A stretch of DNA of 64,000 bases, from NCBI RefSeq assembly GCF_035594765.1, contig NC_085846.1, forward strand, positions 31,483,190 to 31,547,189. The letters are read 5' to 3'. Source of the stretch: Anolis carolinensis (lineage: Eukaryota). This document shows, one piece after another, positions 8,939-50,569 of this stretch (positions within the stretch are counted from its first letter, which is position 1; every line of letters starts with the position of its first letter). The notes under the pieces are model-generated. The model made no database searches, had not been told where the DNA came from, and saw only the letters and a program-made list of their open reading frames with translations. Both the position numbers and the translations under genes were made by a program.

Positions 8939-11900
8939 ATGAGCAGTGGTACAAGGCACACTGTTGCAACACCTGCGAGAAGCAGCAGTGGGAGCAGCAC
9001 CCTAGGTGGAGGACGGGCAGGGGTCGGCTCCGTCTCCTCTGGACGGTACGCTGCCAGTGGGATCAGCAATGGGAGAAGTAACTTCTCTGTCCGGAGTAAT
9101 ACAGGAGCAGTTTCCCCCTGTACCCATGGGCCAGGAAGAGGCCATTTCTCAAGTGGCAGCTGCAGTGGAATGTTTGTCGCTGGTGGGCATGTAGCAGCAA
9201 GTGGCTATGGGGATGGCTCTCATGTTACGAATCCTGCTGCAAGAAATACTGTAGTTGGTGGTGCTGGTGCTGGTCATCCAACTGTGGTCGGAGGTACTGG
9301 CCATGCTATTCCTGGTGACATGGCAGCGGGTGCACATGTGGGCATGCCTACTGGTGTAGTTGGTGGTATGGTAATGGGTGCTCATGGGGGCATGCCTGCT
9401 GGTGTAGTTGGTAGCATGGGTAGTGTAGCTGGAAGTCCTCATCCCAGTATGGTAGCTGGCAGTCCTCATCCCAGTATGGTAGGTGGCAATCCTCATCCTG
9501 GTATGGTAGCTGGCAATCCTCATCCCGGTATGGTAGCTGGCCATTGTGGTATGGTTGGGGGTTTACCTGCTGGTATGGTAGCTGGCATGGGGGGTATGAT
9601 GGGAGGTGGTCATGGAGGCATGATGAGTGGGGTAACCAGTGTGATGACTGGACCGATTTTGGTTAGTGCAGTGGGTGGTGAGCCCATTGCTTGTGCAAGT
9701 GTGTTCTCCAGCTTTGATGGAAAAATGACAATGCAGAACCTCAATGACCGACTGGCCAGCTACCTGGACAAGGTCCGATGCCTGGAGGAGGAAAATGCTG
9801 ATCTTGAATCTCGAATCAGGGAATTTTATGCTAAGCAAGGACCCCTCTCTGAACCCAAGGATTACTCTCATTACCATCAACAAATTGAAGATCTTAAAAA
9901 CCAGGTAAAATGTCAGTGCTTAATTTCTTTTTCATTACTTTCATGCAGTTGTGATAGGTGACTTCCATATCAGTGGGATGGTGAATCCACTTTGGGTATT
10001 AATCCAAATTTGAAAGGAACTCTTGAAGCTGCTGACCCCACTTGGGGGGGGGGTGTAATTCTTTCAAAGTTCAGAGTTAAATCCAGAATAGGTTTATTGC
10101 TCTGCTCACATACCAGTGACTACCTCTATTTACTGGCTTTTGTCCAGTAAAAAGCAGGCTCTTGGACTTGGGTTTAAATCAGAACATCAATGCAAAAGAT
10201 GGACCTCAAAGGGTTTTAGATGTGTTCTTAACTTCCCATATTATTTTGCTCAATGTATGTTTCCGTTATTCCCAAACTTGATATTTTCATTCTTTGAAAG
10301 GAATAATTGAAAAATAAATTGAGATGTGTGAATCCTTCTGCCCTCCAGAATTTGCTGAACTGCAACACAGTATTTTTCACCACTGACTATGTTGGCCAGT
10401 GCTGCTGGGAGTTGTATTCCAATAATATCTAGAGGACTGCATGGTTCCCAGTAGAATCAGTTGGTGATTACTGTGACATTGGGTTAGTCAATCCAATCCA
10501 GGTTTCAAATGAGCTTTCCAAGGTGCTAAACCTTCTAAAAGTATGTTTGAGAGTTCCCTGAAAACTATTTAAAACCTGGGGTGCTTTCATTACCCCCCAC
10601 TGGCATGAAAATCACTAGCTCACATTGACCACCTCATCATATGGCTCAAATTAAGCGTCGTCGTCTGTGTTTGCTTGAATGGTATGGTGCAATTACACCA
10701 TGAGCTGCCATTCACCAATTTAGCCCCTGAAAAAAAGATGGCATATAAGGAAATTAAGTTGATGTCACACAATTGTGATTTTGTAGTCCCAAAGACAGTG
10801 GAATAAATATTGAGTGGTAACCCTACTTCCAAAATGATGTAATGCGCAAAATGGATGAACACAAGGCTATATTAGCTCTTAATGAAATAAAAAAATAGAT
10901 AGTGAAGTCTTTCAGTCAGCAAGCATGCTATTTTCTGGTTTAGCTATGTACTGATATATCAGAGTAAAGGACTTTTGCAGGATATTAGGTTAGTAAATGC
11001 CTGGCACTGAGGTGTACACTCTAAAACTCTTAGCTGATCTTCATGTGTAGGCAATGATGGCTAGTGGGTTCCATGTTTGTGTGTTGAGCAGTTTTTTATA
11101 GGCTATAATCCAAACTTTAAAGGTGCAATCCAAATTGCTGAATCTATTCAAGGTATTGATATTACCCCTAGGTTCAGTAACTTGAGAGTTTCTACTGAAC
11201 TCTGAAATGGATTAATCATACCACTAACATATGCACCACCAGCTGCCACTGTATATGAGAGAGATATATGGTCTTATAATTGGCCTCTCAACATTTTGCC
11301 TTTATGCAGCTCATTTGTACAAGTGTGGAGAACAACAAACTTCTTCTATGCATTGACAACAGCAAGCTGACTGCTGATGACTTCAGGACCAAGTGCGTAT
11401 TTTTCAGATAATATGGGAACAACTGGGGGTGGGGGTGGAAGGGACATTAATTCTATTGAGGCCCACTTTCTGGATGAAAGAGTGATCAGATTCCCAATAT
11501 CCCTAATCATTGGTCAAGACAGTTGGGGCTTCTGGGAATTATTTCAGATGCCCCAAACATCTGGAATAATATTATTATAGAATCACTGTTGTAAGGCATA
11601 CAAGTGGGACTATAATCCAACATGCCTGGCAGCAAAGCCAACATTGTAATTAGCTCAGAAGCCAACTTTTTTGCTGGGTACTTTTGCTGGGTACTAGTTG
11701 ACGTTGGGGAAATCACACTGTCAAACTTAGAAGAAGGCAATGACAAACCTCCCCTGAACAAATCTTCCTGAGAAAATAGTATGATAGAGTTTATTTCAGG
11801 TAACCATAAGTTGAAACAACTTGAAAGTATGCAACAAGAACCAATCTAGTAGCAGGACAGTGATATATGTCTCTCACAATGAATGGGGAAGCTGGTCTTC

Positions 11901-14900
11901 AAAGTCCATGAAAACTCATATGAAGTTCTAGTCTGAACATACAGTGATCAACTTTACCCTTCCTTCTTCACCCTTCCTGAGGAGGAATCAAAATCAAATT
12001 CTCATGCTCTTTTCTTTTTGGTCCAGGTTTGAGACAGAATGTTGCCTCCGTCAGAACGTGGAGGCTGACATCAATGGCCTGCACCAAATCCTGGATCAGT
12101 TGACAGCCTGCAGGGCTGATCTGGATGTACAGTGTGATAACTTACAGGATGAGCTAAACTGCCTGAAGAAGAACCATGCAGAGGTGAGGGATCAGCATTT
12201 TCCTGTTTCAGAATGTCTAAGTGACATGTCTAAAAGAATACTCTTCTTATTACAAGAACTTTAGGTCTGGGAATAGTATTCTTACATGCCAAAGGTGCAT
12301 GTCAAAATATATTGATATTAGGGCCAACTCAAGACATTCTGTGGATTGAGATGAAGAACAAAATGGTGGCTTCCAACACAAAATATCCAATTGAATAGGC
12401 AGTGGTATAATTCTTCCTCACTGGTGATGGGTCAAAATTCTCCATTATAACTGATGGTAGCAGCCCAATTTTAGCAGTCCCTAACAGATTAGTGCTGCCT
12501 ACCAGTATCTGCCACCAGAAGTTAATGTCCTACTCTATCTAATGGTGGAGCTGGTTCTAACTAAGAACTATTTTTTCCAAATGTTATATATTTCTGATCC
12601 AAGAATTCAAGTTTGATTGGGGAAAAATATCCATTGACATGGAAGACATTCAAAATCCCCAGAGAGAAACATATATAGGTGCATGGTTAAGATAATTGTG
12701 TTTATTGAGTGATGTTTACATAAAAGAGTGAGGAAAACAACATGTAGGATCTATCCAAACTGAACAACTGTAGCACCTTAATACCACTTTACTTCTCATG
12801 ACTCTCTTCTATGGAATTTGAAGTTTGATGAACTACTTAGAATTGAACCCAAAAAACAAACAAATTGCATTGGAATTTACCAGAGTCTTGCTAGAGGACC
12901 CAGAAAACTTGGTCCATCCATAGCATAATAGGGTATATTAAAATAAGTATTTTCACCAAGGCCTGTATGGCAAAAGTATCAAATTAAGTTTCATCCTGTT
13001 AATTATGACAGAATTAAAATGTTTTAACCTCTGAAAAACATTCACTGTGGTGGATGAGAAGGACAGAAAGTTTTGTTGGATCATTCAGACTTGTTTTGGT
13101 TATGGTGAGATGGTACTCATGTCATACAATCATTTAATTAACATGGAAAACTATATTAACTAAATCCACATTATTCACAACTGTAATATTCAGAGAATGT
13201 GTTCAGATATAAATTCAAACTACAGTTTATTATGATATCTAAATGCAGCCAAAGAGTATTTAGAGTTTGAAGCAGGCTAGAATAAGAACATCTGAGCATT
13301 TGCTAAAGAAGGTTGTACAACGTACAAAGAATTTTAAAAAATTCTTCTTTGTGTTCCTAGGGAGCAAATATATTTTGAAATGGTCTTATCTACACTGACC
13401 ATTCAATGCAGTTCGAAGCTAGCTTCCAACTGTGGTGGCCAGACAACAAATTCCCACAATAGCACACAAAAGAAAGTCTTTAATGTGCATCAGTGCTCTG
13501 TGGTTTGTGTAATCACCATCCAGCCTCAAACTGGTTCCAGGATTTTCTATGTAATCACCTGCATAGCAAAACTACTTTCTTCAATACCAGTTTGAAACTG
13601 CATTAAATAGTCAATGTAGATGGGACCAATGTAGATGTATTTTTTAGTTGATTTACCATTAAAGAGTCTCTTTCATATACAGCTATCCTAATTATTAGTA
13701 TTCATTTGAAGTACAGTAGAGTCTCGCTTATCCAACGTAACCGGGCCGGCAGAATGTTGGATAAGCGAATATGTTGGATAATAAGGAGGGATTAAGGAAA
13801 AGCCTATTAAACATCAAATTAGGTTATGATTTTACAAATTAAGCACCAAAACATCATGTTATACAACAAATTTGGCAGAAAAAGTAGTTCAGTATGCAGT
13901 AATGCTATGCAGTAATGACTGTATTTACGAATTTAGCACCAAAATATCATGATGTATTAAAAACAATCACTCAAAAAATTTGTTGGATAATCCAGAACGT
14001 TGGATAAGCGAGTGTTGGATAAGTGAGACTCTATTGTAGTATTGGAAAGTAGAAAGAAAATAAATGGAAGTGACAGTTGAGAATTGTTTAATTTGGTTTT
14101 GGCTTCTTTTTACAGGAGGTTGCCTGCCTGAAGAAGCAGTCCACTGGTGATGTCAATGTGGAAGTCAATACCTGTCCTGGACCCGATCTGAAGAAGATCC
14201 TGGAAGAGATGAGGTGCAAGTATGAGACAATGATAGAAGGCAACCGCAAGGAGGTTGAGGCCTGGTATGAATCTAAGGTAAGCTGTACATTTCTAAGTTT
14301 ACAATGCACAAAACAGAAGGAGAATACAATCACAACTGTGATGAGGGATCAATGACATGCAGGATATGTGAACTACAAAGGGTGATGGGATGACACCAAA
14401 ATGGTAATCTATAAAACTTTTGTACAGTTTCAGTTGAAATATATAATTTGTTCAGAAAAAAATTCCCTGTAGCTAGATATAACCACAAAAAACATTTTTC
14501 ACAAGTCCATCTTACATATACCTACGAGACTATATTAATTTACTTTTTGAACCTTCTAATACTCATGTATTCCAATCAGAGCTGTCATTCTTAGCCAACT
14601 ACAATGACACTTCCAGTCATGTAGTCTTGCTTGCAGGTGCTAATAGTTGCTAGTTTTGTCAAGCTTTCTGATATTTTAACTACAGTGTTGTGGTTAAAAT
14701 TGTAAGGGAGGAGGTTGTTGAAGTAACACCATGTACTACTGCATTTAGTGACACTAACACTAGTGATGCCATTGTGACAGACGCAGCTGAATTACAGCCT
14801 TTTCCCAATTCTTTCTACATTCCAGATTGAGGAGGTGAACCGTGATGTTTGCAACAGCAGCCAGGAGATTGAAGAAAGCAACAACAAGGTCACAGAACTG

Positions 14901-17888
14901 AGACGCCAACTGCAAGCCCTGCAGATTGACTATGAAGCCCAGTGCAGTCTGGTAAGAGACAGCTTCTGCATCCCTGGAAGCATGAAAGCGGGGTGGGCAG
15001 ACGAATGAATGGAGGCAGGTAATGTGCCTTCATTTATTTATTTATTTATTTATTTACAGCATTTATATTCCACCCTTCTCACCCCGAAGGGGACTCAGGG
15101 CGGATCACATTACACACATAGGCAAACATTCAATGCCTTTTAACATAGAACAAAGACAAGACAAACATAGGCTCCGAGCGGGCCTCGAACTCATGACCTC
15201 CTGGTCAGAGTGATTCATTGCAGCTGGTTGCAGCTGGCTTGTTCTCCCGCCTGCGCCATACATCTGATGTATGTGCACTAACCACAGAAACAACACATTT
15301 TGTGGAAGCACTCCTGGGGCCAAAGGATTTGTTCCTATGCCTTGTCCACATGATTAGGAAAAAAATAAGAATTTAATGGGTAGGGCACGGGGTGCCAGGA
15401 TTGCCCCACTGTCCTGCCACTTCGCTACAGAGGTTGGTGAATCAGCATGGGGGACTTCATCAATGTGATGAGGTCCATCATCTAGAAATCAAAAGTATAA
15501 ACTGGAAGGAAGGAGAGGAGGAAGGAAGGAAGAAAGGAAGGAAGGAAAAAAGGAAGGAAGGTGAGAGTTCTGCACTTTACCATGCTAACAACGAGAAACA
15601 GGACATTTGTTAACAAAGAAAAATGATGTTTCTCCTCTATTTCTCAGAGGGACACCCTTGAAGCCTCCCTAGGTGAAACTGAGCTTCGCTACAATGGCCA
15701 TCTGGGAGATCTGCAGGAGCGTATCTCCTGCCTAGAGCAGCAGCTGGCTGAGCTGCGTTCAGAGATGGAGTGCCAGAACCATGAGTATACCGAGCTCCTA
15801 GATGTCAAAAGCCGACTGGAGCAGGAGATTGGCACATACCGTGGCTTGCTGGAAGGGGGACAGAACGACAGCAAGTAAGTGGCAGAGAGAAAGAGGTAGT
15901 GAAACACTCCCTCCCCCATAAAATGAATTACCATTACGGATTGGACACACTTCAGTTTAGTTTTGATATAATTTTTCAAAAGTTACATGTTTCTTACAAT
16001 GTAGTATCTTATAACAACAAAGCAGGTAAATTGCAATTACAGGAGAACATTGGCTGGGACTTATCACATGGCATAAGAATTCCTCTTGTTACTCTAGTGG
16101 GAGACTGTTTGGGACCCATTACTTCTATAAACAACTAGCTTAAGTATCCTGCAATTCCCTGGTTAGAAATTTTGTAATTTGTAACACTATGTATTTGAAA
16201 AAGTCATTGTTTTTGGATTTTATGAATGGTCCCATTAAGAAATTGTATAAAGGTGTGGGGGGACTACAGCTCACATCAAGTTAGGTTAACCCTCCTCAAA
16301 CCCCACTAGTACTTAAAGCTGGTCATGTTGGGTATGTATGCTCTCTGGATGTGGGATGACTACAATGTCTATCATGCTGGGTGAGTCCCTCCAAACCTCT
16401 TCAGTATATTATGTTGGTCACAGAAGTTCTGTGTACCAAATCCATTATTGGTGGCATTCAGAGGGCTTTCTAGATGCAGGGTGAACTACAAGTCTCATCC
16501 CCCAAACCCTACCAGTATTCAGAGTTGGGCATGTTGGGTATGCGTGCCAATCCAGATCAATTGTCAGATGGGTCAGAATGCTCTCTGGATGTGGGTGAAC
16601 TGTATCTCCCAAACTCCAGGGTCAATCCCTCCCAAATGCTGCCAGTATTTTCTTTTGATCATGGGGGGGCTGTGTATCAGATTTGGTCCAGATTCGTCAT
16701 CGGTGGGGGTCACAGGGCTTCCTGGAAGTGGGAGCCAATAGGAAATTGTCCAAAAACATAAATCGTCACACACATACATACATACATGCATACACTTTTA
16801 TTATATACATACAAGTTGAGACCATCAGCAGAATACATTCAATAGAGATAATAACTTCCTTTCGGAAAAGAAACACTTTTCAACCATCTCCCACAGGGAG
16901 AACGACAGAAGAGGAATTGTGTCATATAATGAATCCTGCTCTTATCCTGTTGTAATACCAATTTACTTGCCTCTTGTGAGGTCCTTAGAATAGAAAAACA
17001 TCATCTGAATGCATGAGAGGCTGCAATTGATGGATAAATTTCTTGTGGCCCAGGGCAAATGATTTAAAAGTTCAAGTTTGAATCCCTGTGTATTTAACCA
17101 CGGTAGCATTGATTTAGAGCTGCTACCTCTTTTGTACAGCAGGCTTCCCATTTTTAAACACCTTAACTGCAGCTAAAATGAAGCACTTTCAACATTGGGA
17201 ACAGCTTCGCCCGTTAAATTTAGCCAGTGCTGAACAACTAATTTATCGATTTGGGTTTGTTTTTGTTTTTTTAACAAATATTTTCAAGCCTAATTTGGTT
17301 GAATCTTTAGATGCAGAACCCATCGATATGGAAAGCTGACTGTAATCAAATATTTTAGTGCTGAATTAGAGTGCCACGTTTTTTGTTGTTGTTGTGCTTC
17401 TTTAGGTAATAAAGCAGGCAGGGAGACTATAGAAACTTTGATTTAAGAATACGCAATGCATGTATAATGCATTTGACCAGTAGAAATGGAATTTTTTTTG
17501 TTTGAAATGATTTTTGAAAATAATTTATATAAGTAGTATATGTCTTCACATTTTGGAAAGAAGACACATGACTCTAAAAAGCAGATAGATTTCTCTTCCT
17601 ATTGTTTTTTCAGAGCATTTTCTTTTAGCAAATATCAAAGTGTTCCCCAGAATCTCCCCCAGAGAACAATGAAAGCAGCTGACACTGATATGCTGAATTG
17701 GGGATCTGTGTGGGTGAAATGACTTCTGATCAAAACTTTTTTTTTTCAGTAGCCACAATGGAGGAGGCGGGAACACCAGCAGAGTTAGTAGTGCATCAAA
17801 TGGACGCTCCAGTGAAAGTCGGTCAACCCACACTTACGGGACCCATTCTGCAGTTCATACACACCATGGAGGTCATTTACACCACTAG
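8939..17888 (+). CDS. Type I keratin gene A, cysteine-rich rod (HAS/KRT9-like family), ~619 aa; join(8939..9904,11310..11392,12027..12183,14116..14277,14826..14951,15648..15874,17750..17888)
   Basis: Helix-initiation motif [22 protein letters not shown] and termination motif [16 protein letters not shown]. Internal exons are 83/157/162/126/227 nt with GT-AG junctions and a continuous frame. Exon 7 follows a T-tract+CAG and resembles exon 7 of gene C. Exons 1-6 are firmer than exon 7. Confidence 0.93.
9425..9541 (+). repeat. Coding 27-nt tandem repeat (4+ units) encoding VAG(S/N)PHP(S/G)M in the keratin A head
   Basis: The unit gtagctggcagtcctcatcccagtatg is repeated with few substitutions. 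Confidence 0.9.
13714..14036 (+). mobile_element. Tc1/mariner-type MITE
   Basis: TIR CAGTAGAGTCTC(G/A)CTTATCCAA with TA TSD; further copies at 42144 and 58182. Confidence 0.9.
15032..15260 (-). mobile_element. tRNA-derived SINE (same family as 5633)
   Basis: Reverse-complement copy with (TTTA)n tail in intron 5 of gene A. Confidence 0.85.
16135..16810 (-). mobile_element. Probable non-autonomous Helitron
   Basis: CTAG at one end and a (TACA)n/AT-rich other end; internal subrepeats gctctctggatgtggg..actaca. Confidence 0.5.
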
Positions 17889-19393
17889 GCCAACAAGGAA
17901 AACGTGCTTGAGGTGAGAAATAGATATGTCTATCTATGTTCTTGTTGACTTTTCCCCTATTTATGAGATCTTGTAGGATTTTGTGATAGTGTCCCATGTT
18001 GGGACAAAATTAAAAGTATGTGAAGGCACAACCAGGCAGTTAGCAATATCTTAGATACCGAAGATGAAATTGTGAATTGATCGAAGTGAAAAATAGGTTA
18101 ACCACACATATAAAATCAACAAAGTACTGCACTTAGATTACAAGCATAAATGACTACGTTTGCAAGCATGCTATATAAAAGATATGACACTAAAGAAAAA
18201 TAAGCTGGGGAGGGAAAAGGAAGACAGACGTGGTTTCATGCATCAATACTTAAAGTGGCAACTCCTATTGATATTATTATAAATATAGTCATTCCTTCAC
18301 ATTTGCAATTTTAATGTTTGTAGATTTGTGTATTCATAGATTTGATTAAAATGTTATATCTATGAACCTAGGATTCATAGGTTCAACATGACTCTATGGT
18401 CAATTTTCCCCAGTCATGCTGGATGACTTACAGTGCATCTACACTGTAGAATTAATGCAGAAAATACCTTTAGCACAACCCAATGGTCAACATACAGCAG
18501 AAATTGACCATAGAGTCACGTTGAACCTAGATATTCTTAGAAAGATATTCTTTCAGGTCCTGCACCTCTGATCCTTGCAAAAGTAGAGGACCTACATATT
18601 CTCTCAGCCAAGCAGTTAGAGAAAGGCATTACTATTCTACAAAACCATGTTTTTGACCTATAGAAACCCTATACTGGATACTTTGGAATTGCTATAAAGG
18701 AGACAAATATCCAGGCAACATGAGACCAATATAAGTCCTTCCAAAAGTCTTATATAATGTCCATGCTGAACGCTGTTCAGGAGACGATGGGCTATAATGG
18801 TTGGAAGATTATGGAAAATTTAGATTGGCAAAGCATGGACTATTTAGACCTCATCCAGTCTGATAAGTGATCAGATTACAATATATATTAGTCCAGATCC
18901 TGGACCATTCTTTCAGAATGTAAAGCTCTGACAGGCATAAATAAGGACTTTGCTCCTCTCCATCCTTAACTTACTGTCTTCATACCACTAGGGCTCAAGA
19001 ATCAGCACCTGACCACAATGAGACAACATCCTCCTTTTGGGGGAAAGTGGGGCAATTGGGTATCTGGTGTAATGAGTTCAAGGCTGGATCTACACTGCCA
19101 TATAATCCAGCTGAATTCAGTTAATCTACATTCTGAAACTGGATTATATGGTAAAGTAGATCAAGCATAAATTAGGGGATCAGCCCAGATGTCAGAACTG
19201 AGTTCCACTATCCTCAATGACCATAAAAATCCATATGCAGGTTTAAGTTGAATTTATGTCTGCATTTCTCATTAACATGAGACTGACTATGGTTGTACAT
19301 GGATTTAAATATGTTCTGTCAATATGAATGATGCACCATTGACTTTTTCCTTGTCATAGTAACTACATTTTGATTCTTTCTGCTCATCTTTAG

Positions 19394-19670
19394 AGCTACA
19401 GAATAGCAAAGAAAACCATGTCCCTAGAGAAGCATACCTGATGGTACATCCATGCGGCTGTTGTTCCATCTGTCTAAATTACACCTTTCCAAGCTGACCA
19501 GAGATCCCACTTCACTATCTTCCACGCTGCTGTTTCTTTACTATTATTCTGCAACATAACCTCTGTCAAGCTTACTCAACCATCATGCTTTCGTGCCGTG
19601 GTTGGTTCTCTACTAGCCACTGAAAACAAAAGAAGGGATCAAAAATAAAGGCTCTGGTTTTTTCTGTGTG
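19394..19670 (+). other. Probable terminal (3' UTR) exon 8 of keratin A
   Basis: Donor GAG|GTGAGA at 17912/17913 and acceptor TTTAG ending 19393. The start of the exon resembles exon 8 of gene C. AATAAA at 19644-19649 is followed by a GT/T-rich tract; a second AATAAA lies at 19728. Confidence 0.6.
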
Positions 19671-19814
19671 CCACTCAAGGCCTGTGTGTTCAATATGTTT
19701 TCTCTAATCAAAACTTGAAAAGCATTGAATAAATAATGGTGACCACTAGGACACCATCCATACTACAGAATTTTAGCAGCATGATACCATTTTAACTGTC
19801 ATGGCTTCATCTTA

Positions 19815-20290
19815 CAAGCTGGAAAGCGTCCAGAAGAGGGCAACTAAAATGATCAAGGGTCTGGAGAACAAGCCCTATGAGGAGCGGCTTAAAGAACCGG
19901 GCATGTTTAGCCTGCAGAAGAGAAGGCTGAGAGGAGACATGATAGCCATGTACAAATATATGAGGGGAAGTCATAGGGAGGAGGGAGCAGGCTTGTTTTC
20001 TGCTGCCCTGGAGACTAGGACATGGAACAATGGCTTCAAACTACAGGAAAGGAGATTCCACCTGAACATCAGGAAGAACTTTCTCACTGTGAGAGCTGTT
20101 CAGCAGTGGAACTCTCTGCCCCAGAGTGTGGTGGAGGCTCCTTCTTTGGAGGCTTTTAAACAGAGGCTGGATGGCTTTGGGGGATATTGGGGGTGCTTTG
20201 AATGTGATTTCCTGCTTCTTCGCAGAGGGTTGGACTGGATGGCCCATGAGGTCTCTTCCAACTCTACTATTGTATGATTCTATGATTCTA
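19815..20290 (+). mobile_element. 5'-truncated CR1 LINE (RT C-terminus + 3' UTR)
   Basis: [20 protein letters not shown]...WNSLP is typical of CR1 ORF2; ATTCTATG tail. Confidence 0.92.
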
Positions 20291-37470: not shown

Positions 37471-38419
37471 AGTGTAGAGGGGTCAAAAAGGACCACTTGA
37501 GAATGAGGTCTATAGCCCTGTGATCACAAGTTGCCCACACTTCTTGTAGAAACTAAAAATAAAATATGTACGCTAAGCATCTATACATTTTTAGTGCAGC
37601 TTGCTGGGAGTGGAAACAAAAGAAAAGGGAGAAGAGTGGAAAAGAGAGATTGACAATGGTGGTGGATATACCAAGATAGAAACAAAAAAGTTGATCTTGG
37701 TGCTGCATCTGGTTGGTTTCAGCCTCATCCACCATTGACATGCAGCCAGAAAGATCTCCCCTTGCATGAGAAGAGACTCTTCTACAGAAGATTGTTTGGT
37801 ATATCTTTATAGTGTTCACCCATTTAAGAATGTTTGTTTGATCAGAGCGACAGTAAGCAATCACAATGTCTTTCTTTTTCTGTGTTGCTATTATACCTGA
37901 TGATGTTTATTGGTTTTTCATTTTGCTGGATTCAATTTGGGATGCTACCCTCTGTGTATGTAGTCATTTATCATAGGATGAAACCTATTTTTGCACACAC
38001 TTTAAACTCTGAATTGTATACACAATAAAGGAGCCAATCTTGGGGAATAAAACATGTGTATGTGTCAATCTCGAAAAAGAAATAGTTTTTGCAGACCTTG
38101 CGCAGATTAGGAAAAAACGTGATGGTGATACATAATCACATAAGCTATAATAGTTTTTCTAGGTCTTTCTACTAGGTGATATTCAAGATTTCTCATGTTT
38201 ACAGTACAGTGAATAAGATAAAAGGATAAATAATTTAAACATTTTGGAATATTTTGGCTGAGATCTTAGATAGGGAGATGTTAAGGTTGCCACGGGCATC
38301 CAGTCTTTTAGTTGCTGTTCTCTCATGGCAACATCCTGGACAATGGAGAGAAAGGGGACATCAGAGTAGCATCCAGCTATATTCCAGTACCTGGATCCTC
38401 ATAGATGAAGCATGCTCAG

Positions 38420-38568
38420 GGCCCTTCCACACAAACATATAACCCTGAATATTAAGGCAGAATAACCCACAGTATCAGCTTTGAACTGAGTTTTCTGAGT
38501 CCACACTGCCATATATTTCAGTTCCAAGCAAATAATGTAGGATTTTATTTAGCTATGTGGAAGGAGCC
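38420..38568. mobile_element. PIF/Harbinger-like MITE
   Basis: TIR GGGCCCTTCCACA / TGTGGAAGGAGCC; 3-bp TSD tca. Confidence 0.75.
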
Positions 38569-40648
38569 TCACACCACCCAGAGATTTTTGAGTATGATGT
38601 CCAAGTGGAGAATCCTTTAGTTATAAGGATATAGCTGAAGGATTATCTACTACTCTACCATCTAGTACACAGTCATGGAAAACCACATACAGTAAATGGT
38701 GGGTTGTGGGAGGACTTTGATCACCATACAAGACTCTATATTCTAAAAGAATGAATCCAGGCTTTACTACACTGCCACCATTGCCCCCACCCAACAAAAA
38801 ACACCTTGTAGTCACCATGCTTGGACGGCTACCTGCCTCCATGATGCACAATGGCTTCTGATGAATACAGAGGCTTTTGTTTTGCTTTAATGTGAGTTTA
38901 CTGTGCTTTGGGCAAATTTGGGGGATAGGCTGCAGTTTACTGGAAACTCTATGGTATTCTGGACGATAGTATTGGGTCTGATTAGGCAAGATCGGCTATC
39001 CAGACCAGACTTCAGGGCATAATTCAACACAGGGGAAAGGGATGGATCACGCCCATGTTATCATCGGCTCCATTCTAGATTGCCATGAAAACAGCCATGG
39101 GCATGGATCTGAGCACCTGACTGCCATAGACACCTCTGTTAATGTCAGCATGAGATGCTCATGTGATCAGCAAGAACAATGGAGGATTGCACCTTTCCCT
39201 TGCCTGTTGTGCCCCCTTCTGACCAGAAGCATCTCCAGGTTGTAGGTAGTTAGTAGAAGCAGCAGTGACATAGAGGAATTGAGATGTTCGCCACCCCAGC
39301 AAAAGTGGATGTGTTCCCTGGTTGTCTATACAACAGCCCTAAAATCAGTTTGAACATGCTGAATCTGAGGCTGGTTTGGGACACATTTATTTAAACAATC
39401 CCCTCTCACTGGTTTCAAGTGAATCTGACCCCTCTTTTTCTTGCTTCTGGCAAGTTCTTTGCTTTCAAGTTAAGCCAGACAGTTTGTTCATATTAATACT
39501 TCCAGCAGCTGGTTAATTAGCTCATGTGTTTCTAATAATGGCTTTACTCATTGCAAGTAATCCTGAAAAGAAAGTCAGTTCTGCAAAATGAAGATGATGC
39601 CCTCATGAGAAACCACTTTTAACAGACAATGCAAAATGACAGGCTGCCTTTATTCTATGGCTTGGGTTGTCCTCCCTCCTGCAACACAGCCCTATAAAAC
39701 CATCTCACATTACTCTAGTTCCAAAATAGTAATTTTATGGATCAATAAGAACTGTAAGAATAATTATTATTACAATTGACCCAAGTAGCATGCTAAATAT
39801 GCACATCAGAAAGACTTGGCTCCCTTGTCAGGAAAACACTTGCAGTAGTATTAATCTTGTATAAAGTCAAATCTAGTATTGTTCAGGATTTCTTGTGTGC
39901 CATGATATTCTTCCAAGCGGAAGGGAACTTTATGGAGATATGAAGTCCATATTGGATTCTTTCTACCCCATCAAGGATGCTGCCATTGCTAACAACTGGT
40001 GATGGCTATTAAGTTTCCTACCACAGCAACTGATTCCCAAAAGAATGACAATTGCACCATAGAATGGGAGAGCATAACATTTCCTTCCCTTTTCATCAAT
40101 GGAAATGCAAATAGAAGCCTGCTGGAGCCTCCCCACAAAATATAGGGAGACAAAGACTTCATTAGAGGTCGGCTTGAAGTATATGAATAGAATCCTGTTA
40201 ATATATTCTACCAGAGTAGACTCACTACACCAACAGGTTTAATTAATTCTCATCACTCAACATCTGATTCAATTGGCTTACCCAAATTGTGACTGACCAA
40301 TAGGATAAATAGCAAAGGCACCATTCTTCTTCTATATGTTCACCCTGTCTGTGTATGCTGCCTAAATAGGATTAAGGTTCCATTGCACATCCAACAAAGA
40401 AAGTTTCAGAGCTTGGGAGTTTCTGGATCAGGATAAATGAAGTCTTTTCCAAAGCCAGAGCTTGGAAAAGTTACTTCTGAAGACTACAGCTTGAAGAACA
40501 TCCCAGCTAGGTGCTAACTGGCATCATCCCAGGCAGATGCTAGCTGTGGGATTCTGAGAGTTGTAGTCCTCTGAAAGAACTTTTCTAAGTTCTGTCCAAA
40601 ACAAGCATTTGGAGCAGCAAAATCTGTCTCTTGATGAAGAACTGTGAA

Positions 40649-40882
40649 GGCCCGGGCTGTGGCGCAGGCGGGAGAGCAAGCCAGCTGCAACCAGCTGCAA
40701 TGAATCACTCTGACCAAGAGGTCATGAGTTCGAGGCCCGCTCGGAGCCTATGTTTGTCTTGTCTTTGTTCTATGTTAAAAGACATTGAATGTTTGCCTAT
40801 ATGTGTAATGTGATCCGCCCTGAGTCCCCTTCGGGGTGAGAAGGGCGGAATATAAATGCTGCAAATAAATAAATAAATAAAT
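40649..40882 (+). mobile_element. tRNA-derived SINE (same family as 5633)
   Basis: Full-length copy with A/B boxes and (TAAA)n tail. Confidence 0.88.
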
Positions 40883-41762
40883 GTTTGTACATCCGCCTTC
40901 TGGTCCCGTCTAGTACCAATCTGTCCTTCATGAAAGCATTGTTTGGATAAGAGAAAGACTAAAATGAATTCTTTTTGAGAACAAGAAATGAGACTGACTG
41001 GAGCCTAAGTTCTTGCATTTATTAAAGATGTATGGGACAACGTCATTATTAAAAGCAAAAAATTGCAGCCCCAACATCTTCCAGGTTGTTCATTCTGAAG
41101 CGTAGGGAATTCAAGAATGAAATAAACATACAAAATAGAATTAAAATCGAATGTGTCTCTCTTTATGTCTAATGCATGCACACAAATTAAAACACCACAT
41201 TTATTATGTGTCCTGTGCTATTTTCTCTCATCACGCAGTCTGCTTAATTCATCAAAGACACAGAAAAAGCCTTCATTAGAAGGTGCCTCTCAGGCATTAT
41301 GCAAATATTGTAAACTAATTACGACAGGCAATAAGATAAAAATGATGTTGAACAAGCTTTGCATAATGATTGGGGAAGTCACCATTATGAAACCAATGTA
41401 ACATTTCTTGTTTTGGGATGAAAAAGTTTCTGAGCTATTCTGCATGTGGGATATGCAACACAATGTTGGAGTGTAAAGTGACTTATTCAAGGTTCTGGCA
41501 GGCCAGCTATGCCCTCTTGCAAGGTATTCCATTCCCTTTCCTTCAGCCACTGCTTTTCTATTCCAGTCAGCAGTTCAGTGTGTTCTGTATCCAGCGACTA
41601 TGCTGAACTCTCATTAGTAGCATTGGGGTAATGACTCTCCTTATGGTTGATCTCTGGAAAGGTCTTGTGGGTAATTCTGCAAGCTTTACAACAATTTGGA
41701 GATGAGTGGAGGAAAGGGTTTTTTTAGAGGTTTAGGAAGTATTGGCATTGAATTCTTGTCAG

Positions 41763-41835
41763 ATTGTGAACCGCCCTGAGTCCCTTCGGGTGAGAAGGGT
41801 GGGATAGAAATGAGGGAAATAAATAAATAAATAAA
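41763..41835 (+). mobile_element. L2-type 3' end
   Basis: ccgccctgagtcccttcgggtgagaaggg followed by (AAAT)n. Confidence 0.7.
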
Positions 41836-42143
41836 ATTGCACCCTTAACACAACTGAGTTCTTGTCTAGGTTGCCTGGTGGAGCTTCTTGATTTGCTGTT
41901 TCAACTACATAGGTTCTCCACAAAATTATATCACAGCTAGGGAAAGGAACTTCTAACTAGTGGAGGTTCCTGAACTGATCCAAGAAGGTTCTCCACATAG
42001 TCCTTTACTGCATCCTCCCAGAAATCTGGGAAAGGCATTCTCTGCTGATGCTGATACTTTAAGATTCTGCAAGCACCAGGTAAACATACTTTGATTCTCC
42101 CCTTTCCTTCTCCATGTAGGAAAGGCAGAGGAATATATACATA

Positions 42144-42466
42144 CAGTAGAGTCTCATTTATCCAACATAAACGAGCCAGCAGAATGTTGGATAAACGAAT
42201 ATGTTGGATAATAAGGAGGGATTAAGGAAAAGCCTATTAAACATCAAATTAGGTTATGATTTTACCAATTAAGCACCAAAACATCATGTTATACAACAAA
42301 TTTGACAGAAAAAGTAGTTCAATATGAAGTAATGCTATGTAGTAATTACTGTATTTATAAATTGAGCACCAAAATATCACAATGTATTGAAAACATTGAC
42401 TACAAAAATGCGTTGGATAATCCAGAATGTTGGATAAGCGAGTGTTGGATAAGTGAGACTCTACTG
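42144..42466 (+). mobile_element. Tc1/mariner-type MITE
   Basis: TIRs and TA TSD; same family as 13714. Confidence 0.9.
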
Positions 42467-42495
42467 TATATATATATGTATATACACACACAGGT

Positions 42496-42690
42496 CATAG
42501 AATCATAGAAGAGAGTTCATCAAGTCCAACTTCTTACCATACAGGAATACACAATCAAAGCACTCCCAAAAAATGACAATCCAGTCTCTGTTTAAAAACT
42601 CCCAGAAAAAGAGACTCTATTATACTTTGAGGCAGTGTATACCACCACTATCTAACAATTCTTACCATCAGGATGTTTTTCTTACTTTTT
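42496..42690 (-). mobile_element. Old CR1 3' fragment
   Basis: CATAGAAT repeats and a diverged CR1 3' UTR. Confidence 0.6.
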
Positions 42691-43169
42691 ACCCAGAATT
42701 TTTTTCCCTACAGTCTCAAGAAAGTAGACAACAGAGCGAGAGACTGGAATGTTGTGGTTGAGATGTTTTATGCTGGAGGCTATTTGTTAAGCAATTCCAC
42801 TGTGGGAGAGACACTGTAATAATAAGACACTATGCCAAAGTCTGTCTTCCCTAACAAGCATTCCCCATGACCAATTATAGTTACTAGAGTCTCTTCTCCT
42901 TGCCCAGAGGACCTTTCATCCATTATTTCATTTCACTAATGTTTGATCTCTGCTGAGACTGTATCTGGGGGATGACTTGGGTGCTTTCTTAAGGGAAAGG
43001 ATGGACAATAGCAAGTACAAGGGTTTATCACAAGAGGTTTTTTCCCCCTACATGAAGCAGAGATTTCTGTCTGGGATTGCATCCAAGCCACCATATTGTT
43101 TCTGTGTTCCAACTATACAAGATGTTAAAACTTTTGTATGCATGGCTTTAATTAGATAACCCGTTCACT

Positions 43170-43490
43170 TGGAACTGGTCCATCCCTAGTGACATCCGGC
43201 AGGCTCCATCCCTTTTGAGTTTTACAAAGAAAGTGAAGACCTGGCTATGCGAGCAAGCGTTCAAAGAATAAGTTTCATTGGCTTCGACTCGGTCTGGACT
43301 AAGGTTTATGTATGTACAAGGTTTTGTGGATGTATTATTTTAAATCTGTTTTTAATTGCTTATGTTTTATTCTTTTGTATTGTTGTATATTGGCATCGAA
43401 TTCTGCCAGTTTTGTAAGCCACCCTGAGTCCCTTCGGGTGAGAATGGCAGGATAGAAATGATGGAAATAATAATAAATAATAATAATAAA
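43170..43490 (+). mobile_element. L2 LINE 3' end
   Basis: ORF-end remnant (DIRQAPSLLSFTKKVKTWL), then the tail shared with the SINE family and (AAT)n. Confidence 0.7.
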
Positions 43491-45843
43491 TCTGTTGTGC
43501 AAATGAGAGTCCTAGTGATTGCTATAAAAAGTGTTGGGTCTCATCTCTGGCGGGATACCAATTGGGGGCTTCACTTTTTGTTCATTTAATTATTTATGAA
43601 TTTAATGAACATGTTTTTTTCATACAGGCTCATCACATGAGGCAAATTAAGTGTCCTAGGATGCTTCTGGGACACTTCCTCCTTGCCAGATGACAACATG
43701 ATGTATAGTGACTTTTGGTGGGGCCCTGTGGCGGAAGTGTCCTGATAGCAGTGCAGGAGGTTTCTCTCAGAACAAGGAAGGCTTCCCGTATTCCATAGAA
43801 AAGTATGAGGCCAAGTCGCAGTGGTGATACTTCCCCACGTGGGATTGGGAAGCATCAGCTGTGGGCAAGGCGGAGTGCTGGGATTGCCCCGATGATTCAT
43901 CATGGGTGGTGGCAAATCGCCCGGTGGGGCCTCATCCATTTGAGCCCAGAGTTGTTGTTTATTTTGTTCCTATAGATAAGATCTCCCAAGCTTCAGCCAC
44001 CTTTTTCCAGTAATGCCTTTTGGTGTCCTCTCCTTAGTGCTGCACTGTTATGTGAGATTTTTTTTAATAAGAAGGTGGAACACCAGATTCCCTACAGGGC
44101 TATGCTAAAGCATTAAGCATCACTTTAAAAACAATTACAGGTGTTTTCTAGTAATCTAGGAATGAGTGGCCTTCTTTACATTGGATGGAAAAAAGGACAT
44201 TCTGTGCTCTTATAAATACTTTTAAAAAACAGCATCATTTTGGGTGTGCCTCTAGCATTCTGAACCTGCTCCTGGCTGTCCAGATCTGTCAGATTCCAGA
44301 ATTGCTTCAGGTGAATCTTCTCTACTTGACACAAGAGAGATAGTTTCATTCTGGTTCTTTTTCTTTCCTTATATTCCCCCTACCTTTTTGGGGAGAGGTA
44401 GCTATGGACTGTGTTCCACCTGAGGCACTTTTTATTATGCATTACCCGTTTGTATTTCAATAGAAATGAACGCTTAATCTGTGCTCAGAATTTTGGCAGC
44501 AGATGGCTAAATGACAAGGCTTACAAATGGGTAATTGGCTTCCAAATTGAAAAGATCACAGTAGAATTAAAAGCATACAAAGAGTCAACATTAAAATAGA
44601 ATTAGACTATTAACATGATTAAAACTATTACAAGATTAAAACAAGCCTAAACAAGATTAAAACAGATGAAGTACAATTGGTAGTCAATGGAATAGGAATT
44701 ATCATAGTCATTTTCATTCCTTACAATTCTGCATCAATACACAATATCGTTTTAATATCCAATAAAATAAAATAAATCAAAATACATTTAAGAATGATTT
44801 ATATCTAAATATATTATAAATAATAATTTATTACATAAGTGTCTGGATTTCTTGATAAGTAATGGAAAAATTAATGCTTGTTAATAAAGTATTAATTTTA
44901 ATTAATGTCAGGTAACTTTTTAATATAAATGAGGTGGATAATTTTATGAATTTTAACTTAAAGTTTTTTTTAACCCACCTTATTCAAAAGTAGAACTCTC
45001 AAGCATTTCACCGACCTGTACAGAGGCGTCTAGCTCCACTTTGTCCATATCTGACAAAAGAATTGAAATGGATCAGACTGAAGTTCCACTTACTTTTATG
45101 AGCCCGCTCTATTATTAAAGCTGTATCCATAGTGCAGAATTATAGCAGTTTGACATCACTTTGATAGCCATAATTCCATTCTAGGAAACCCTGGGATTTA
45201 TAGTTTGTGATGGGACCAGATTGCATAACAAAATCCTAGAATTCCATAGCATTGAACCATGGAAGTTAATTTGGTGTCAAATCTATATAATTTTGTGGTA
45301 TGAGTTTGACTCGGTCCCAAATATGACGTAAGTGTAAACATAAATATGTATGAATGAGGAGGCAAATTAAATAGTGTTTGTTATGTGAATGCAATGTACA
45401 TTTGTGTTTATTTTACAAATGGAAATTGTTGCAGAATGGAGACCTGACCAGCTCTTGAGATCATGGGAAGTAACAGGGTGGCACTTTCTCTTCCAGACAA
45501 AGTCTGGGTGGCTATTTAACAAAATGAAAAATACTCACATAAATTGCATTAAAGCAATTAATTGGATTTGAGAAGAAAATGCACATCACATCAATACATT
45601 ATTCAAGAAATGTATTAATTCTAGCTTGAAAAGTGAAATTCACATAGAAAGAAGAGGGAATATTCTTCATCCAAAGGAACTCAGATGGGCTAAAGGAAGC
45701 ATGAAATACACTTAGCTGCATCATTGTAAATAACAGGATGAGCATCCGTGGATTTTGGTAACCACGGTGGGTCCTGGAACCACATCCCAGCAGATACCAA
45801 GAGCCCACTGTATATTTCCTTTAGTGTGTGGATCCTTTTAGAG

Positions 45844-45978
45844 CAGTGGTTCTCAATCTGTGGGTCTGCAGAGGTTTTGGCCTTCAACTCCCAGAAACCC
45901 TAACAGCTGGTAAACTGGCTGGGATTTCTGGGAGTTGTAGACCAAAACATCTCAGGACTCACAGATTGAGAACCACTG
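45844..45978. mobile_element. 135-bp hAT MITE
   Basis: TIRs; TSD ttttagag/ttttaaag. Confidence 0.88.
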
Positions 45979-46249
45979 TTTTAAAGACATTGGGATCATC
46001 TCTAAGCCCAAGCTTTCCTTGAAGACTCTTATTTTGGGCAGGTGGGTTGCAGCATGAAAGGGGAGTCAAGATGATGGGAGAAAAATGGTGTTACCAGAAC
46101 ATACCAATTTTCCCCCCCTAAGGATAATCATTTCTTCCACCCCCAACAATACCCTAGGATAGACACCATTTCCAATGGACGAGTATGTGGAAAATAAGTC
46201 TGCAGCTTAGGTGCTAATTATAATTCCATTACTATGTGAAACTGAAGTA

Positions 46250-46904
46250 AATGAGCCAACAATATGATGCAGCAGCTAAAAAAGCCAACGGGATTCTGGC
46301 CTGCATCAATAGGGGTATAGCGTCTAGATCCAGGGAAGTCATGCTCCCCCTCTATTCTGCCTTGGTCAGACCACACCTGGAATACTGCGTCCAATTTTGG
46401 GCACCGCAGTTGAAGGGAGATGTTGACAAGCTGGAAAGTGTCCAGAGGAGGGCAACTAAAATGATTAAGGGTCTGGAGAACAAGCTCTATGAAGAGTGGT
46501 TTCAAGAGCTTGGCATGTTTAGCCTGCAGAAGAGAAGGCTGAGAGGAGACATGATAGCCATGTACAAATACGTGAAGGGAAGTCATAGGGAGGAGGGAGC
46601 AAGCTTGTTTTCTGCTGCCCTGCAGACTAGGACGCGGAACAATGGCTTCAAACTACAGGAAAGGAGATTCCACCTGAACATCAGGAAGAACTTCCTCACT
46701 GTGAGGGCTGTTCGACAGTGGAACTCTCTCCCCGGGGCTGTGGTGGAGGCTCCTTCCTTGGAGGCTTTTAAGCAGAGGCTGGATGGCCATCTGTCGGGGG
46801 TGCTTTGAATGCGATTTCCTGCTTCTTGGCAGGGGGTTGGACTGGATGGCCCATGAGGTCTCTTCCAACTCTACTATTCTATGATTCTATGATTCTATGA
46901 TTCT
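46250..46904 (+). mobile_element. 5'-truncated young CR1 LINE
   Basis: Uninterrupted 185-aa CR1 ORF2 C-terminus ([20 protein letters not shown]), 3' UTR and (ATTCTATG)n tail. Confidence 0.95.
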
Positions 46905-47170
46905 AAATAGGAACCTGTGCATGGCAAAATTCTGAAGAGGCCACTAGCTCTCTTCAGGGCATCCTGTTCTAAACCAGTTTCAATAGGATTGAAATTTGTC
47001 ACAGACTTATCAAGGTAAGTTCCTCAGCATACCAAGAATAAATGGATTTACATCTACCCCAAGAAAGTCAAGAAAGCTTTATATAGAGTAGCCCCACTGA
47101 ATCAATGAAATTTACATACACTCTGACTCATCATTCAACAGCTGAATCTATGGACCTACTGCAACTAGCA

Positions 47171-47760
47171 CAGTAGTTCCTAACCTTTTTTCACCAGGGA
47201 CCACTTTGACCAGGGACCATTCTCCTACATTAGCACCAAAAGGGTCACAAATCAGTTTTTGGTCAACTTTAGATTTGGTTTGGTTATCTGGGGTGCTATT
47301 TCAGAAAATTGCATTGGATAGACCACATCAGCTCTAGTTTCTGATACAGAACATATGCCATACAGTAGTCACCATCTGCTCGCCCACAGAAAACCATATT
47401 TAATAATATAGAGCTGATGTGGTCTATCCAATGCAATTTTCTGAATCAGCGCCCCAAATAACCCAGGAACAGGCCTAAAAATGAAGACACCAAGGCGCCC
47501 CTGATTTCAAGCCCCATATGGAACGCCTCCACTTAGGGGGAGGGAGGAGGAGGAGAAGCATCAGTCAGGAGGCTTGTTGTTGTGCCTTCCGTGGGTAGTC
47601 AGCCTCTCCTTTCCTGACATCTCTGTTGCCTTGGCATTATATGAGGGTTTTGTGAGACCAGTTGCTCTCATTTCAATGGTGTGGTAAATTAGGGCCGCAG
47701 ACCATATTTTAGTTCTTGGGGACCACTGGTGGTCCACGGACCACAGGCTGGGAACCACTG
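47171..47760. mobile_element. Non-autonomous hAT element
   Basis: TIR CAGT(A/G)GTTCC(T/C)A; 8-bp TSD aactagca/aactagga. Confidence 0.85.
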
Positions 47761-47826
47761 AACTAGGACTACTAATAGGATGGAGGCCAAGTTGGTCCAC
47801 CACTAATGAGAATAAACCCTCAATGA

Positions 47827-48087
47827 TTACCTGGATGGAGCTTTATGTTAGTAACAGCTTATATTAGAGGTTTATTTAAGTGAAGTGACAACTGTTCTTG
47901 TGCTGATAAAGCATAATGGAGCAAATGTGTCTGCTCCTTTATGGTTCTATAAAGCATTTACCTGGATGGAGCTTTATGTTAGTAACAGCTTATATTAGAG
48001 GTTTATTTAAGTGAAGTGACAACTGTACTTGTGCTGATAAAGCATAATGGAGCAAATGTGTCTGCTCCTTTATGGTTCTATAAAGCA
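47827..48087. repeat. 131-bp tandem duplication
   Basis: Two copies with one mismatch seen (actgttcttg/actgtacttg). Confidence 0.92.
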
Positions 48088-49826
48088 AAAAGTCTGAATG
48101 TTTTATTTGGGGAGGATGGACAGGTGTTTGTGCATGACTATGGTCATTTCACACTGCACATTGAAAGCATTCTGATTCCACTTCAATTGCCATGACAATA
48201 TCCTATGGTATTCTGGGTTTGTTTGGGTTTTTTTTTAGCTTGGTGAAATGTTAGGAATTTTTGGCTGAGTATTCTAAATGCCCCTCCCTAATTATGAGAG
48301 AGTGTGGTATAATGGTTTGAGTGTTGGTTTAGGACTTCAGAGACTAGGATGTGAAGGTGACCTTGGGCAAGTCACACTCTCTCAACTTTACTGGAGGGCA
48401 AAGGCAAAACCGCACTCAACAAATCTTGCCAAGAAAACCTCATGATAGGTTTGCCTTAGGGTTCTCTTAAGTTGGAAATGACTTGAAGGCACACAACAAC
48501 AAAACAGCAACTCATATAATTTGAACTTTTACGCTGCATTTCATATTTTGCAATTCAAACTAGAACCTCGTGACAAACTGCATTATTGTTCCCACCCCAA
48601 ACTGGCAGAGAATTCCAAACTTTCAGGTTTAAATTGAAAGGTTCCTTGTGGAGTTCTGGTTCCTTATCTCGCAATCTAGGTAATTGCACATACGAATGAG
48701 AATTTTTCCCAACGGCATCAAATTATTGACTCCTTCAAGAAATTCCAGGTTTTCTCACAGCCAGAACTGTTCAGGTATAAAATAAAGTCTGCTTTCATAG
48801 GAAAAATGGGCAACAGCTTAAACATTTCTATATTCAGAAATTGAACATGGGACAAGAGAGGATAGATAAAAAGAGATTACTTTTTATCTATCCAGATGAC
48901 TTTTTATCTATCTAGATGCTCTTTTCAACCATCTGACCAATGATTATAGGAAGCTGTCAACTTGATTAGAGTGCTTTGGTGTCATCCAGTGTATATGAAG
49001 AAAGGATGCATGAGGAAGAATCTGCAAAAGTGGCACTAGAGCCACCCCGAACCCCAATTCACAATAAACTGAACACTTGCTATTACCAAGAGTGACAGTA
49101 TTATTAATAATTAAAATTATTAAAGATGCAGTCCTGGATATTGTGCAGAGGCAGCTTAGCACAATGTTGTGTAATGTGAAGTTGTGACATTGGAAGTTAT
49201 GCTTGGATGTATAATTACAGTGTGAGAAATGCAATTCATGCTCGCATATATGTATATGTATGGATAGTCTCAGTTAAGGTAGATGGAATGGAGTCTTTGC
49301 AGGGTCAGGTCTAGCAATTGGATCAGCAGACAGTCAGGCAGGTCTGGAATCAGAAGTACCTGAATAATTGACAAGGAGGTAGGAAGGGTAAATTCAGTCT
49401 GGACTATTAATGTTGTAGAAGACAGGGAAGAGGCATATGTCTACAACAGGGGTTGTTAAAACATGATGTAAGTAAGATTTAAAGTATTGCATCTGCTTTG
49501 TATTCTCATTTATGATTCAGGCACTATTGTCATGATGGCAAATGACCCTGAAATTCACCTTAAATCCCTAATTCGTCATTCATAGTCATAGCAATACAGG
49601 ATGGCATGACCAACTCCATCATACCAGCAAACACAGCTGTGGGGGTCCGAAGTCAGGATCTCTGCAGGAACCTGTTGCAATTTTCCATTCCAACTTTGCT
49701 CGTTAGCAGGAGAGATTGTTCACATAATCTCATAGTGTTTCACTCACTAGCAGAACAAACCTCACTAATTTCAGATGGCTGGGTTTTAAGATGAGTTTAA
49801 AGGGTTGGATAGCTGCAATATCTGCA

Positions 49827-50047
49827 CATAGAATCATGGAACAATAGAGTTGGAAGAGACCTCATGGGCCATCCAGTCCAACCTCCTGCCAAGAAGCAGG
49901 AAATTGCGTTCAAAGGACCCCCAACAAATGGCCATCCAACCTCTGCTTAAAAGCCTCCAGAGAAGGAGCCTCCACCACAGTCTGGGGGAGAGAATTCCAC
50001 TGCCAAACAGCTCTCACAGTGAGAATGTTCTTCCTGATATTCAGGTG
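49827..50047 (-). mobile_element. CR1 3' fragment
   Basis: Reverse complement of the CR1 3' end. Confidence 0.85.
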
Positions 50048-50130
50048 ACATTTGAGGCAGGATCTCAGCCATGCTCTGTGGAGCACATGAATTTTCTTTT
50101 GTCCTCTCTAGAGCTATACACTGACTCTGA

Positions 50131-50569
50131 GGGCCCTTTCAGACAGGCATGGAGCCAGTCCCCAGCCTCCCATTTACCTTCAGAACTTATGTGAAGGGCC
50201 TGGTTGCATGCTTAGGCCCCTCCAGTGAAAGTTCCTGATGCGTCAAAATGATGCATCAGGAAGTTAGGGCGGGGGGGGGGGGGGGGGGAGGGATTTTCCT
50301 CCCTCCCTCAATCTCCCAAAACATCATTTTTATGTATAGGAGCTTTCACTGGAGGGGCCTGAACATGCAACTAGGCCTCTCACATAAGTTTAGGGGCTAA
50401 ATGGTGGGCTGGGGACCAGCCCCATGCCCTCTGCTTTGCCTGGGAGGGCATGTAGCCACCCACTAGAGAAAGCCCGGGGTTTGGGGAAGGTATGGAATCT
50501 CAATCCCAGGAGGAACTGGGATAAAATATCCCAGTTCCTCCCAGGATTGAAGCCAGTCTGGAAGGTACC
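50131..50569. mobile_element. PIF/Harbinger-like MITE with internal inverted repeats and poly-G
   Basis: Imperfect TIR GGGCCCTTTCAGAC / GTCTGGAAGGTACC. Confidence 0.65.

Follow-up and report, generated by a model that had tools for sequence, protein, structure and literature searches.

A conserved C-terminal histidine array and an untranslated last exon in the squamate keratin gene HAS4

The DNA analyzed here, referred to as the window, is a stretch of 64,000 nucleotides of Anolis carolinensis (assembly GCF_035594765.1, contig NC_085846.1, positions 31,483,190 to 31,547,189) that holds a cluster of type I keratin genes; all coordinates are positions in this window on the + strand. Our analysis concerns the 3' end of one gene of the cluster, gene A, whose protein ends in an array of histidine (His) residues and whose stop codon lies in the penultimate exon. 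Gene A is the already known keratin HAS4/KRT9LC4 of this species: from an ATG at 8939 its eight exons give an open 619-residue protein that is identical over all 619 residues to RefSeq XP_016850078 / UniProt A0A803T7J2 (LOC100553851), and Ehrlich et al. 2020 (PMC7086170) give the sequence in their supplement under the name Lizard_HAS4 (K9LC4), calling the snake ortholog HAS2. The coding part of exon 1 (8939 to 9904, matching XP_016850078) encodes a head of 261 residues, rich in Gly, Ser, Val and Met and with 15 His, together with the start of the rod. In the gene model it is followed by exon 2 (11310 to 11392, 83 nt), exon 3 (12027 to 12183, 157 nt), exon 4 (14116 to 14277, 162 nt) and exon 5 (14826 to 14951, 126 nt), while exon 6 (15648 to 15874, 227 nt), placed by the gene model and by joints in transcript contigs, completes the rod and ends in a phase-2 donor. 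These sizes fit the conserved eight-exon type I set of 83/157/162/126/about 221-227 nt, as tabulated in PMC5573215, and the only Pfam domain in the protein is the intermediate filament rod (PF00038, residues 261-571, 335 bits), with the length of about 310 residues found in type I keratins.

A FastTree phylogeny of 41 rods, built without hair keratins and with one alligator rod skipped, places HAS4 inside the HAS keratins (clade support 0.935), apart from K9L and K10. Within this group the protein and 14 squamate proteins form one clade with support 1.0, the sister of which is a HAS3-like clade. HAS4 has 19 cysteines (Cys) and its 11 orthologs with a full tail have 18-27; the HAS criterion given in the text of PMC7086170 is more than 20, yet the authors list this protein as HAS4. 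Two paralogs, B (HAS3) and C (HAS2), lie downstream of HAS4 in the window, where a KRT14-like neighbor was not identified. The HAS1 and HAS2 keratins of squamates, birds and turtles share with HAS4 the Cys-rich type I rod, the exon sizes and an (R/K)TSH(T/S)Y motif in exon 7, but differ from it in having 0-3 His among their last 20 residues and a frame that enters exon 8 in phase 1 wherever the DNA was seen, that is in paralog C and in a bird-like HAS locus (L013). In paralog C, exon 7 (58615 to 58718, from the sequence and the published HAS2 tail) ends in a phase-1 donor and the coding part of exon 8 (59929 to 59942) reads GHSR-stop, in agreement with an initial annotation of the window, which had noted this continuation and its different junction phase.

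In HAS4, exon 7 (17750 to 17912, 163 nt) holds the tail, the stop and the first 24 nt of the 3' untranslated region (UTR). Its first base completes the phase-2 codon begun in exon 6, so that the tail is read from 17751; the TAG stop occupies 17886 to 17888, and after 24 nt of UTR (17889 to 17912) a GTGAGA donor at 17913 opens intron 7 (17913 to 19393, 1481 nt), an intron with GT..AG ends that now lies within the 3'UTR. Exon 8 (19394 to 19733) is untranslated and carries AATAAA at 19644 and 19728, with a 3' end that is approximate (the contigs of two runs, X11 and X12, stop at 19673 and 19656). Splicing was compared over 15600-19790 in contigs of four public runs, presumed to be of RNA; such contigs drop rare forms, and they show the presence of splice forms only. 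The joints 15874>17750 and 17912>19394, both with GT..AG ends, were found in the contigs of three of the four runs (X4, X11 and X12, from three studies), and single contigs in X11 and X12 cover exons 6, 7 and 8, while the fourth run (X6) shows exon 8 only, at low depth. Contig depths over the exons were about 12,000, 129, 48 and under 4, which is not an expression measure. No alternative exon-7 acceptor, no other joint touching exon 7 and no changed letter in exon 7 was seen in these contigs. The initial annotation had given the same exon boundaries, the same peptide with eight His in its last 20 residues and the same stop 24 nt before GTGAGA; it had named junction reads as the check on these proposals and another exon-7 acceptor or frame as what would speak against them, and frame, gene model and spliced contigs agree with it throughout.

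A stop codon less than about 50-55 nt upstream of the last junction escapes nonsense-mediated mRNA decay (NMD). The HAS4 stop, 24 nt before a junction after which no later joint was seen in the contigs up to 19790, is inside this safe range, as the initial annotation had held, and the spliced form exists. Human KRT9, the closest mammalian relative of the HAS keratins according to the text of PMC7086170, has eight exons, and in the S2 table of PMC5573215 its coding sequence through exon 7 sums to 1872 nt, or 624 codons, the next rows being of 40, 1080 and 312 nt. Read with the assumption that the row labels are shifted, since the table itself labels these rows intron 7 and exon 8 CDS (coding sequence) with 983 aa, KRT9 appears to end its reading frame 40 nt short of the last junction and to leave exon 8 untranslated, the same layout as HAS4. 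A stop in the penultimate exon is therefore not unusual; escape from NMD is ordinary, and the layout is harmless. Dog KRT9 has 20 coding nt in exon 8 according to the tables of PMC5573215, unlike HAS4 and unlike human KRT9 as read here, and because it keeps this coding exon the two layouts probably arose separately. The likeness does not extend to composition, as K9 is Cys-poor, unlike HAS4.

The array itself occupies the last 19 codons of the gene (17829 to 17885), which hold eight His. Nine of the 52 tail residues are His (17%), and eight of these lie in the last 20, for which the binomial probability of at least eight is 2e-8 at a background of 2.6% His and 8e-6 at the 5.7% of the head. Among 2184 stop-ended windows of 20 codons in the six frames, only two contain eight His, namely the HAS4 tail and one microsatellite, and at least five His in the last 20 residues occur in only 11 of the 206 keratins fetched, all of them HAS4 orthologs. 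The longest run is HH and successive His are 1-5 residues apart, with no poly-His run, and the earlier description of the tail as His-tag-like was overstated. A further claim, that both end domains are His-rich, stands for the tail and not for the head: with 15 His in 261 residues (5.7%; the protein as a whole has 30 in 619) the head is enriched relative to HAS1/2 heads (0.9%, against 4.6% in ortholog heads, about fivefold), yet it is not His-rich as the tail is. The head also carries, at 9430-9560, about four near-tandem repeats of 10 residues rich in Gly, Met, Pro and His, with 20 Met in its 261 residues; A. sagrei has fewer copies.

Orthologs were sought with a whole ortholog and not with the tail, in order to avoid selecting for His. 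Within the HAS4 clade, 11 of the 14 proteins carry the array and have 5-8 His among their final 20 residues. They range from geckos to vipers and come from A. sagrei and two other iguanian genera, from an agamid, an anguid, a lacertid and an amphisbaenian, and from three geckos and a viper. The further cluster members listed (n = 21; 14 snakes, 5 lacertids and 2 anoles including gene A itself) have the array in 15 cases, again with 5-8 His in the last 20. In the alignment of the 11, each of columns 592, 597, 601, 604, 607, 609 and 610 holds His in 10 or all 11 sequences, while columns 599, 602, 603 and 608 between them vary. Pairwise identity is 0.84 and 0.64 for the array, as against 0.57 for the front of exon 7 and 0.51 for the head. 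A search with the tail alone returned strong matches only from squamates, eight at E <1e-9 including the query. The TSHTY front of the motif is older, being common to bird, turtle and HAS1/2 tails, and of four HAS3-like proteins, three likewise have 2-4 His at the end, so that the trend toward His may be older than the split between HAS3 and HAS4. The search matches included no tuatara HAS4, and the sole tuatara match groups weakly with HAS1/2. From the aligned C-termini we infer that all HAS4 orthologs stop inside exon 7. The initial annotation had held that gene A gained a His-rich tail, and had looked for the tail in other lizards. A gain is upheld and the tail is conserved in lizards and in snakes as well, but it is not special to Anolis or to this copy: it is old and squamate-wide, extending to geckos, an amphisbaenian and snakes. 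As a separate observation, many snake HAS4 database models are only 349-355 aa long (P0208, P0209, P0211, P0212, P0214-P0216, P0218), where full models have 541-544 aa; several break off at exon 6, and annotation gaps are the likely cause.

Exon 8 appears to preserve an older end of the protein. At 19410 to 19427, 16 nt into the exon, it reads R-K-P-C-P-stop, in register with an ancestral end of the form R[KR]x[CF]D-stop. This end is represented in two outgroup loci, L013 and a bird-like K9L locus (L014), both from a metagenome scan that gave 29 loci, of which four were examined by tblastn and none was a squamate HAS4. In these loci exon 7 has a phase-1 end, and the residues encoded by exon 8 are VTCRRICD (L013) or GYGRKSFD (L014); turtle HAS proteins end in GHGRKICD. 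The donor hexamer of HAS4 exon 7 is that of L014, and among the window's 127,996 codon starts only 3 begin the pattern R[KR]x[CF]x-stop, the exon 8 site included. Two points speak against this assignment. The pattern was framed from the outgroups after exon 8 had been inspected, and the unanchored DNA alignment of HAS4 exon 8 is weak, being equalled by 363 of 4000 background windows in the comparison with paralog C and by 136 of 4000 in that with L014. Over its whole length, exon 8 of HAS4 has no similarity to that of paralog C (147 of 500 shuffles as good, with the boundaries of C 1-2 bases off). On the strength of the in-register relic, the outgroup coding ends and the shared donor hexamer, exon 8 is likely a former coding exon turned UTR, with intron 7 the old intron; the initial proposal that exon 8 became untranslated is borne out by this in-frame match to the ancestral coding end.

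As to how the stop came to lie in exon 7, the default explanation is a simple gain of a stop codon there. Alternatively, the end of exon 7 would be a copy of the ancestral exon-8 head, comprising the coding end, the stop and the first UTR bases, set before the old donor, in which case the stop would have been inherited and the head would be present twice in HAS4. We consider this possible but unlikely. It is suggested by the bases that follow the stops at 17886 and, in paralog C, at 59940, where 11 of the first 15 match without gaps, a level reached by none of 1708 other TAG sites, and by protein ends that align in register (H-x4-GH in HAS4, H-x4-G[HY]SR in HAS1/2, with the agamid HAS4 ending in GHSRH). 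Over the full 24 nt, the match level of 13 is reached by 8 of 1706 other TAG sites, and the local alignment to paralog C is equalled by 24 of 4000 background windows. Read in another frame, the 24 nt give R-K-T-C, which resembles the ancestral end, with about 0.013 such cases expected in 30 starts. The comparison is, however, post hoc, A-rich and dependent on one paralog. Bird-like exon-8 heads do no better than background (2201 and 2881 of 4000), and neither HAS4's own exon 8 (480 of 4000) nor the combined comparison without paralog C (1458 of 4000) rises above it. It is because the match does not reach the bird-like exons or the gene's own exon 8 that we rate the copied head no higher. In paralog C itself, at 59929-59960, the bases after the GHSR stop resemble the coding start of L013 exon 8 (158 of 4000 background windows), and in HAS2, too, an older coding end may have been cut short.

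The tails of type I keratins project from the filament. That the His positions are fixed and their spacers free, in an array at the very end of such a tail, argues for selection on the imidazole side chains. The reading we favor, tentatively and as somewhat less than probable, is that the array is a reversible, metal- and pH-dependent linker between filaments, or from filaments to matrix proteins, in cornifying skin. In the proposed sequence of events, the squamate stem lineage would have acquired a coding end within exon 7, and exon 8 would have decayed into 3'UTR. The His side chains, kept by selection, would bind Zn2+ or Cu2+ through several of their number, with Cys beside them in many orthologs (His-x-Cys-His occurs in the HAS4 of lacertids, an anguid and snakes), or alternatively would lose charge near pH 6-7. 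The tails of neighboring filaments or matrix proteins would in this way be bridged in addition to the disulfides of the rod. Precedent comes from invertebrate fibers, as described in passages of PMC9999432: the His-rich termini of mussel preCols make metal cross-links, and a Gly/His-rich Nereis jaw protein, NVJP-1, assembles with Zn. The initial annotation had likewise pointed to Zn-hardened invertebrate jaws and to the supply of urocanic acid in cornified skin; for HAS4 both are analogies. Like HAS4, these proteins carry His/Gly-rich terminal segments with GGH-type spacing on a fibrous protein. They differ in that they are not homologous to HAS4, are extracellular and have a far higher His content, with Dopa in the preCols, and in that metal binding has been shown for them and is proposed for HAS4, with which they would share metal- and pH-dependent cross-linking.

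Several observations weigh against a linker of this kind. The array is missing in 3 of the 14 clade proteins and in 6 of the 21 further cluster members, though of these nine models eight either end or diverge where exon 6 meets exon 7 and the ninth ends within exon 7, a pattern that probably reflects annotation gaps. Where present, the array contributes only 5-8 His to a protein about 550-620 aa long, compared with 27 mol% His in the Nereis jaw protein (PMC9999432, same passages). The published proteomes also record little of the protein. According to Table 1 of PMC11704414, mass spectrometry detected HAS4 in the skin and not in the claw of Pogona (bearded dragon), which speaks for its being made in skin. 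The Pogona skin gave only two peptides, and no peptide from the C-terminus was seen; in the Anolis toe proteome it is the lowest-scoring keratin row, with two peptides, one of them unique, and four peptide-spectrum matches, and this toe table is the only place in the supplement where its accession occurs. This low abundance makes a role in bulk hardening doubtful unless expression is stage-specific; expression confined to a stage of the shedding cycle could reconcile low abundance with a mechanical role.

The main alternative is that the array acts as a metal-free sticker that docks the tail on corneous beta-proteins, or on aromatic or His-rich proteins of the epidermal differentiation complex, through pi-stacking, hydrogen bonds and pH-switched charge. 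A conserved Tyr and variable aromatic positions within the array are consistent with this, as are the isoelectric points of the orthologs, which are mostly less acidic (5.0-5.7) than HAS1/2 (4.8-5.2), and pi-stacking has been suggested, in passages of PMC12821399, for the His-rich feather protein EDMTFH. The combination of fixed His, free spacers and His-x-Cys-His nevertheless looks more like ligand geometry than composition, and we regard a sticker as a serious possibility that is on the whole unlikely. Neutral drift in a low-complexity tail is improbable: keratin tails are compositionally labile, turtle HAS tails contain 4-5 His, as many as 6 occur in some HAS1/2 tails, and the length of the array differs between snakes and lizards, but drift would not readily keep seven His columns in 10-11 of 11 sequences from geckos to snakes, with identity in the array above that of the exon front and the head. 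Finally, filaggrin-derived His has an established role in the cornified layers of mammals, and the terminal, easily clipped His of HAS4 could by analogy be a store freed by proteolysis for urocanic acid. This is very improbable, since a store would select for His content and not for fixed positions, while HAS4 has a single array with only nine tail His (30 in 619 aa) and few spectra in the published proteomes (tables of PMC11704414), which does not make an abundant, repetitive filaggrin-type precursor, and a search of the reptile skin literature, at the level of titles and the starts of abstracts, found no paper on urocanic acid or histidase in squamate epidermis.

The linker reading and the copied exon-8 head can be joined, such that HAS4 would add His-metal coordination to its disulfides by way of a His-rich terminus derived from the head of the last exon, copied onto exon 7 with exon 8 left as a fossil; taken as a whole, this joint account is rather unlikely. 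The gene, the protein and the family are known, and it is the conserved His array that has apparently gone unremarked in print. A full-text search for HAS4 and its identifiers found only PMC11704414, the word histidine has no occurrence in the main text of PMC7086170, and no remark on the array or on the untranslated last exon was found in the literature searched, which included passages of PMC7086170, PMC11704414 and PMC11816140 and does not prove absence from print. What is at hand is one squamate keratin that has kept a fixed array of seven C-terminal His from geckos to snakes, together with a likely exon-8 relic that would document how a keratin tail came by a different end. If the array does bind metal, vertebrate keratin filaments would have a second chemistry of cross-linking in addition to disulfide and isopeptide bonds, one otherwise known from mussel threads and worm jaws and here placed in a vertebrate intermediate filament, with possible consequences for the shedding layers of the skin in lizards and snakes.

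Elsewhere in the window, the published Anolis HAS3 tail maps to 37725 in paralog B (37464-37770) and bears no resemblance to HAS3-like tails from geckos and a cordylid, most of which finish in pairs of His. A search of 37480-52000 for an exon 7 resembling the tails of HAS3 orthologs found no convincing candidate, and HAS3 may have a degenerate 3' end or one that is mis-annotated. Inside the same paralog, a stretch of 150 N at about 33340-33490 marks an assembly gap. Between HAS4 and HAS3, 27014-27931 has long open frames on both strands and short Pro/Gly/Tyr/Trp repeats on the minus strand, and is probably a transposon remnant. Two similar short interspersed elements lie at 15090-15260, inside HAS4 intron 5, and at 40660-40830. 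Two fragments that resemble the reverse-transcriptase ends of CR1-type long interspersed elements (LINEs) are found at 46250-46800 and at 19780-20270, the latter directly behind HAS4 exon 8.

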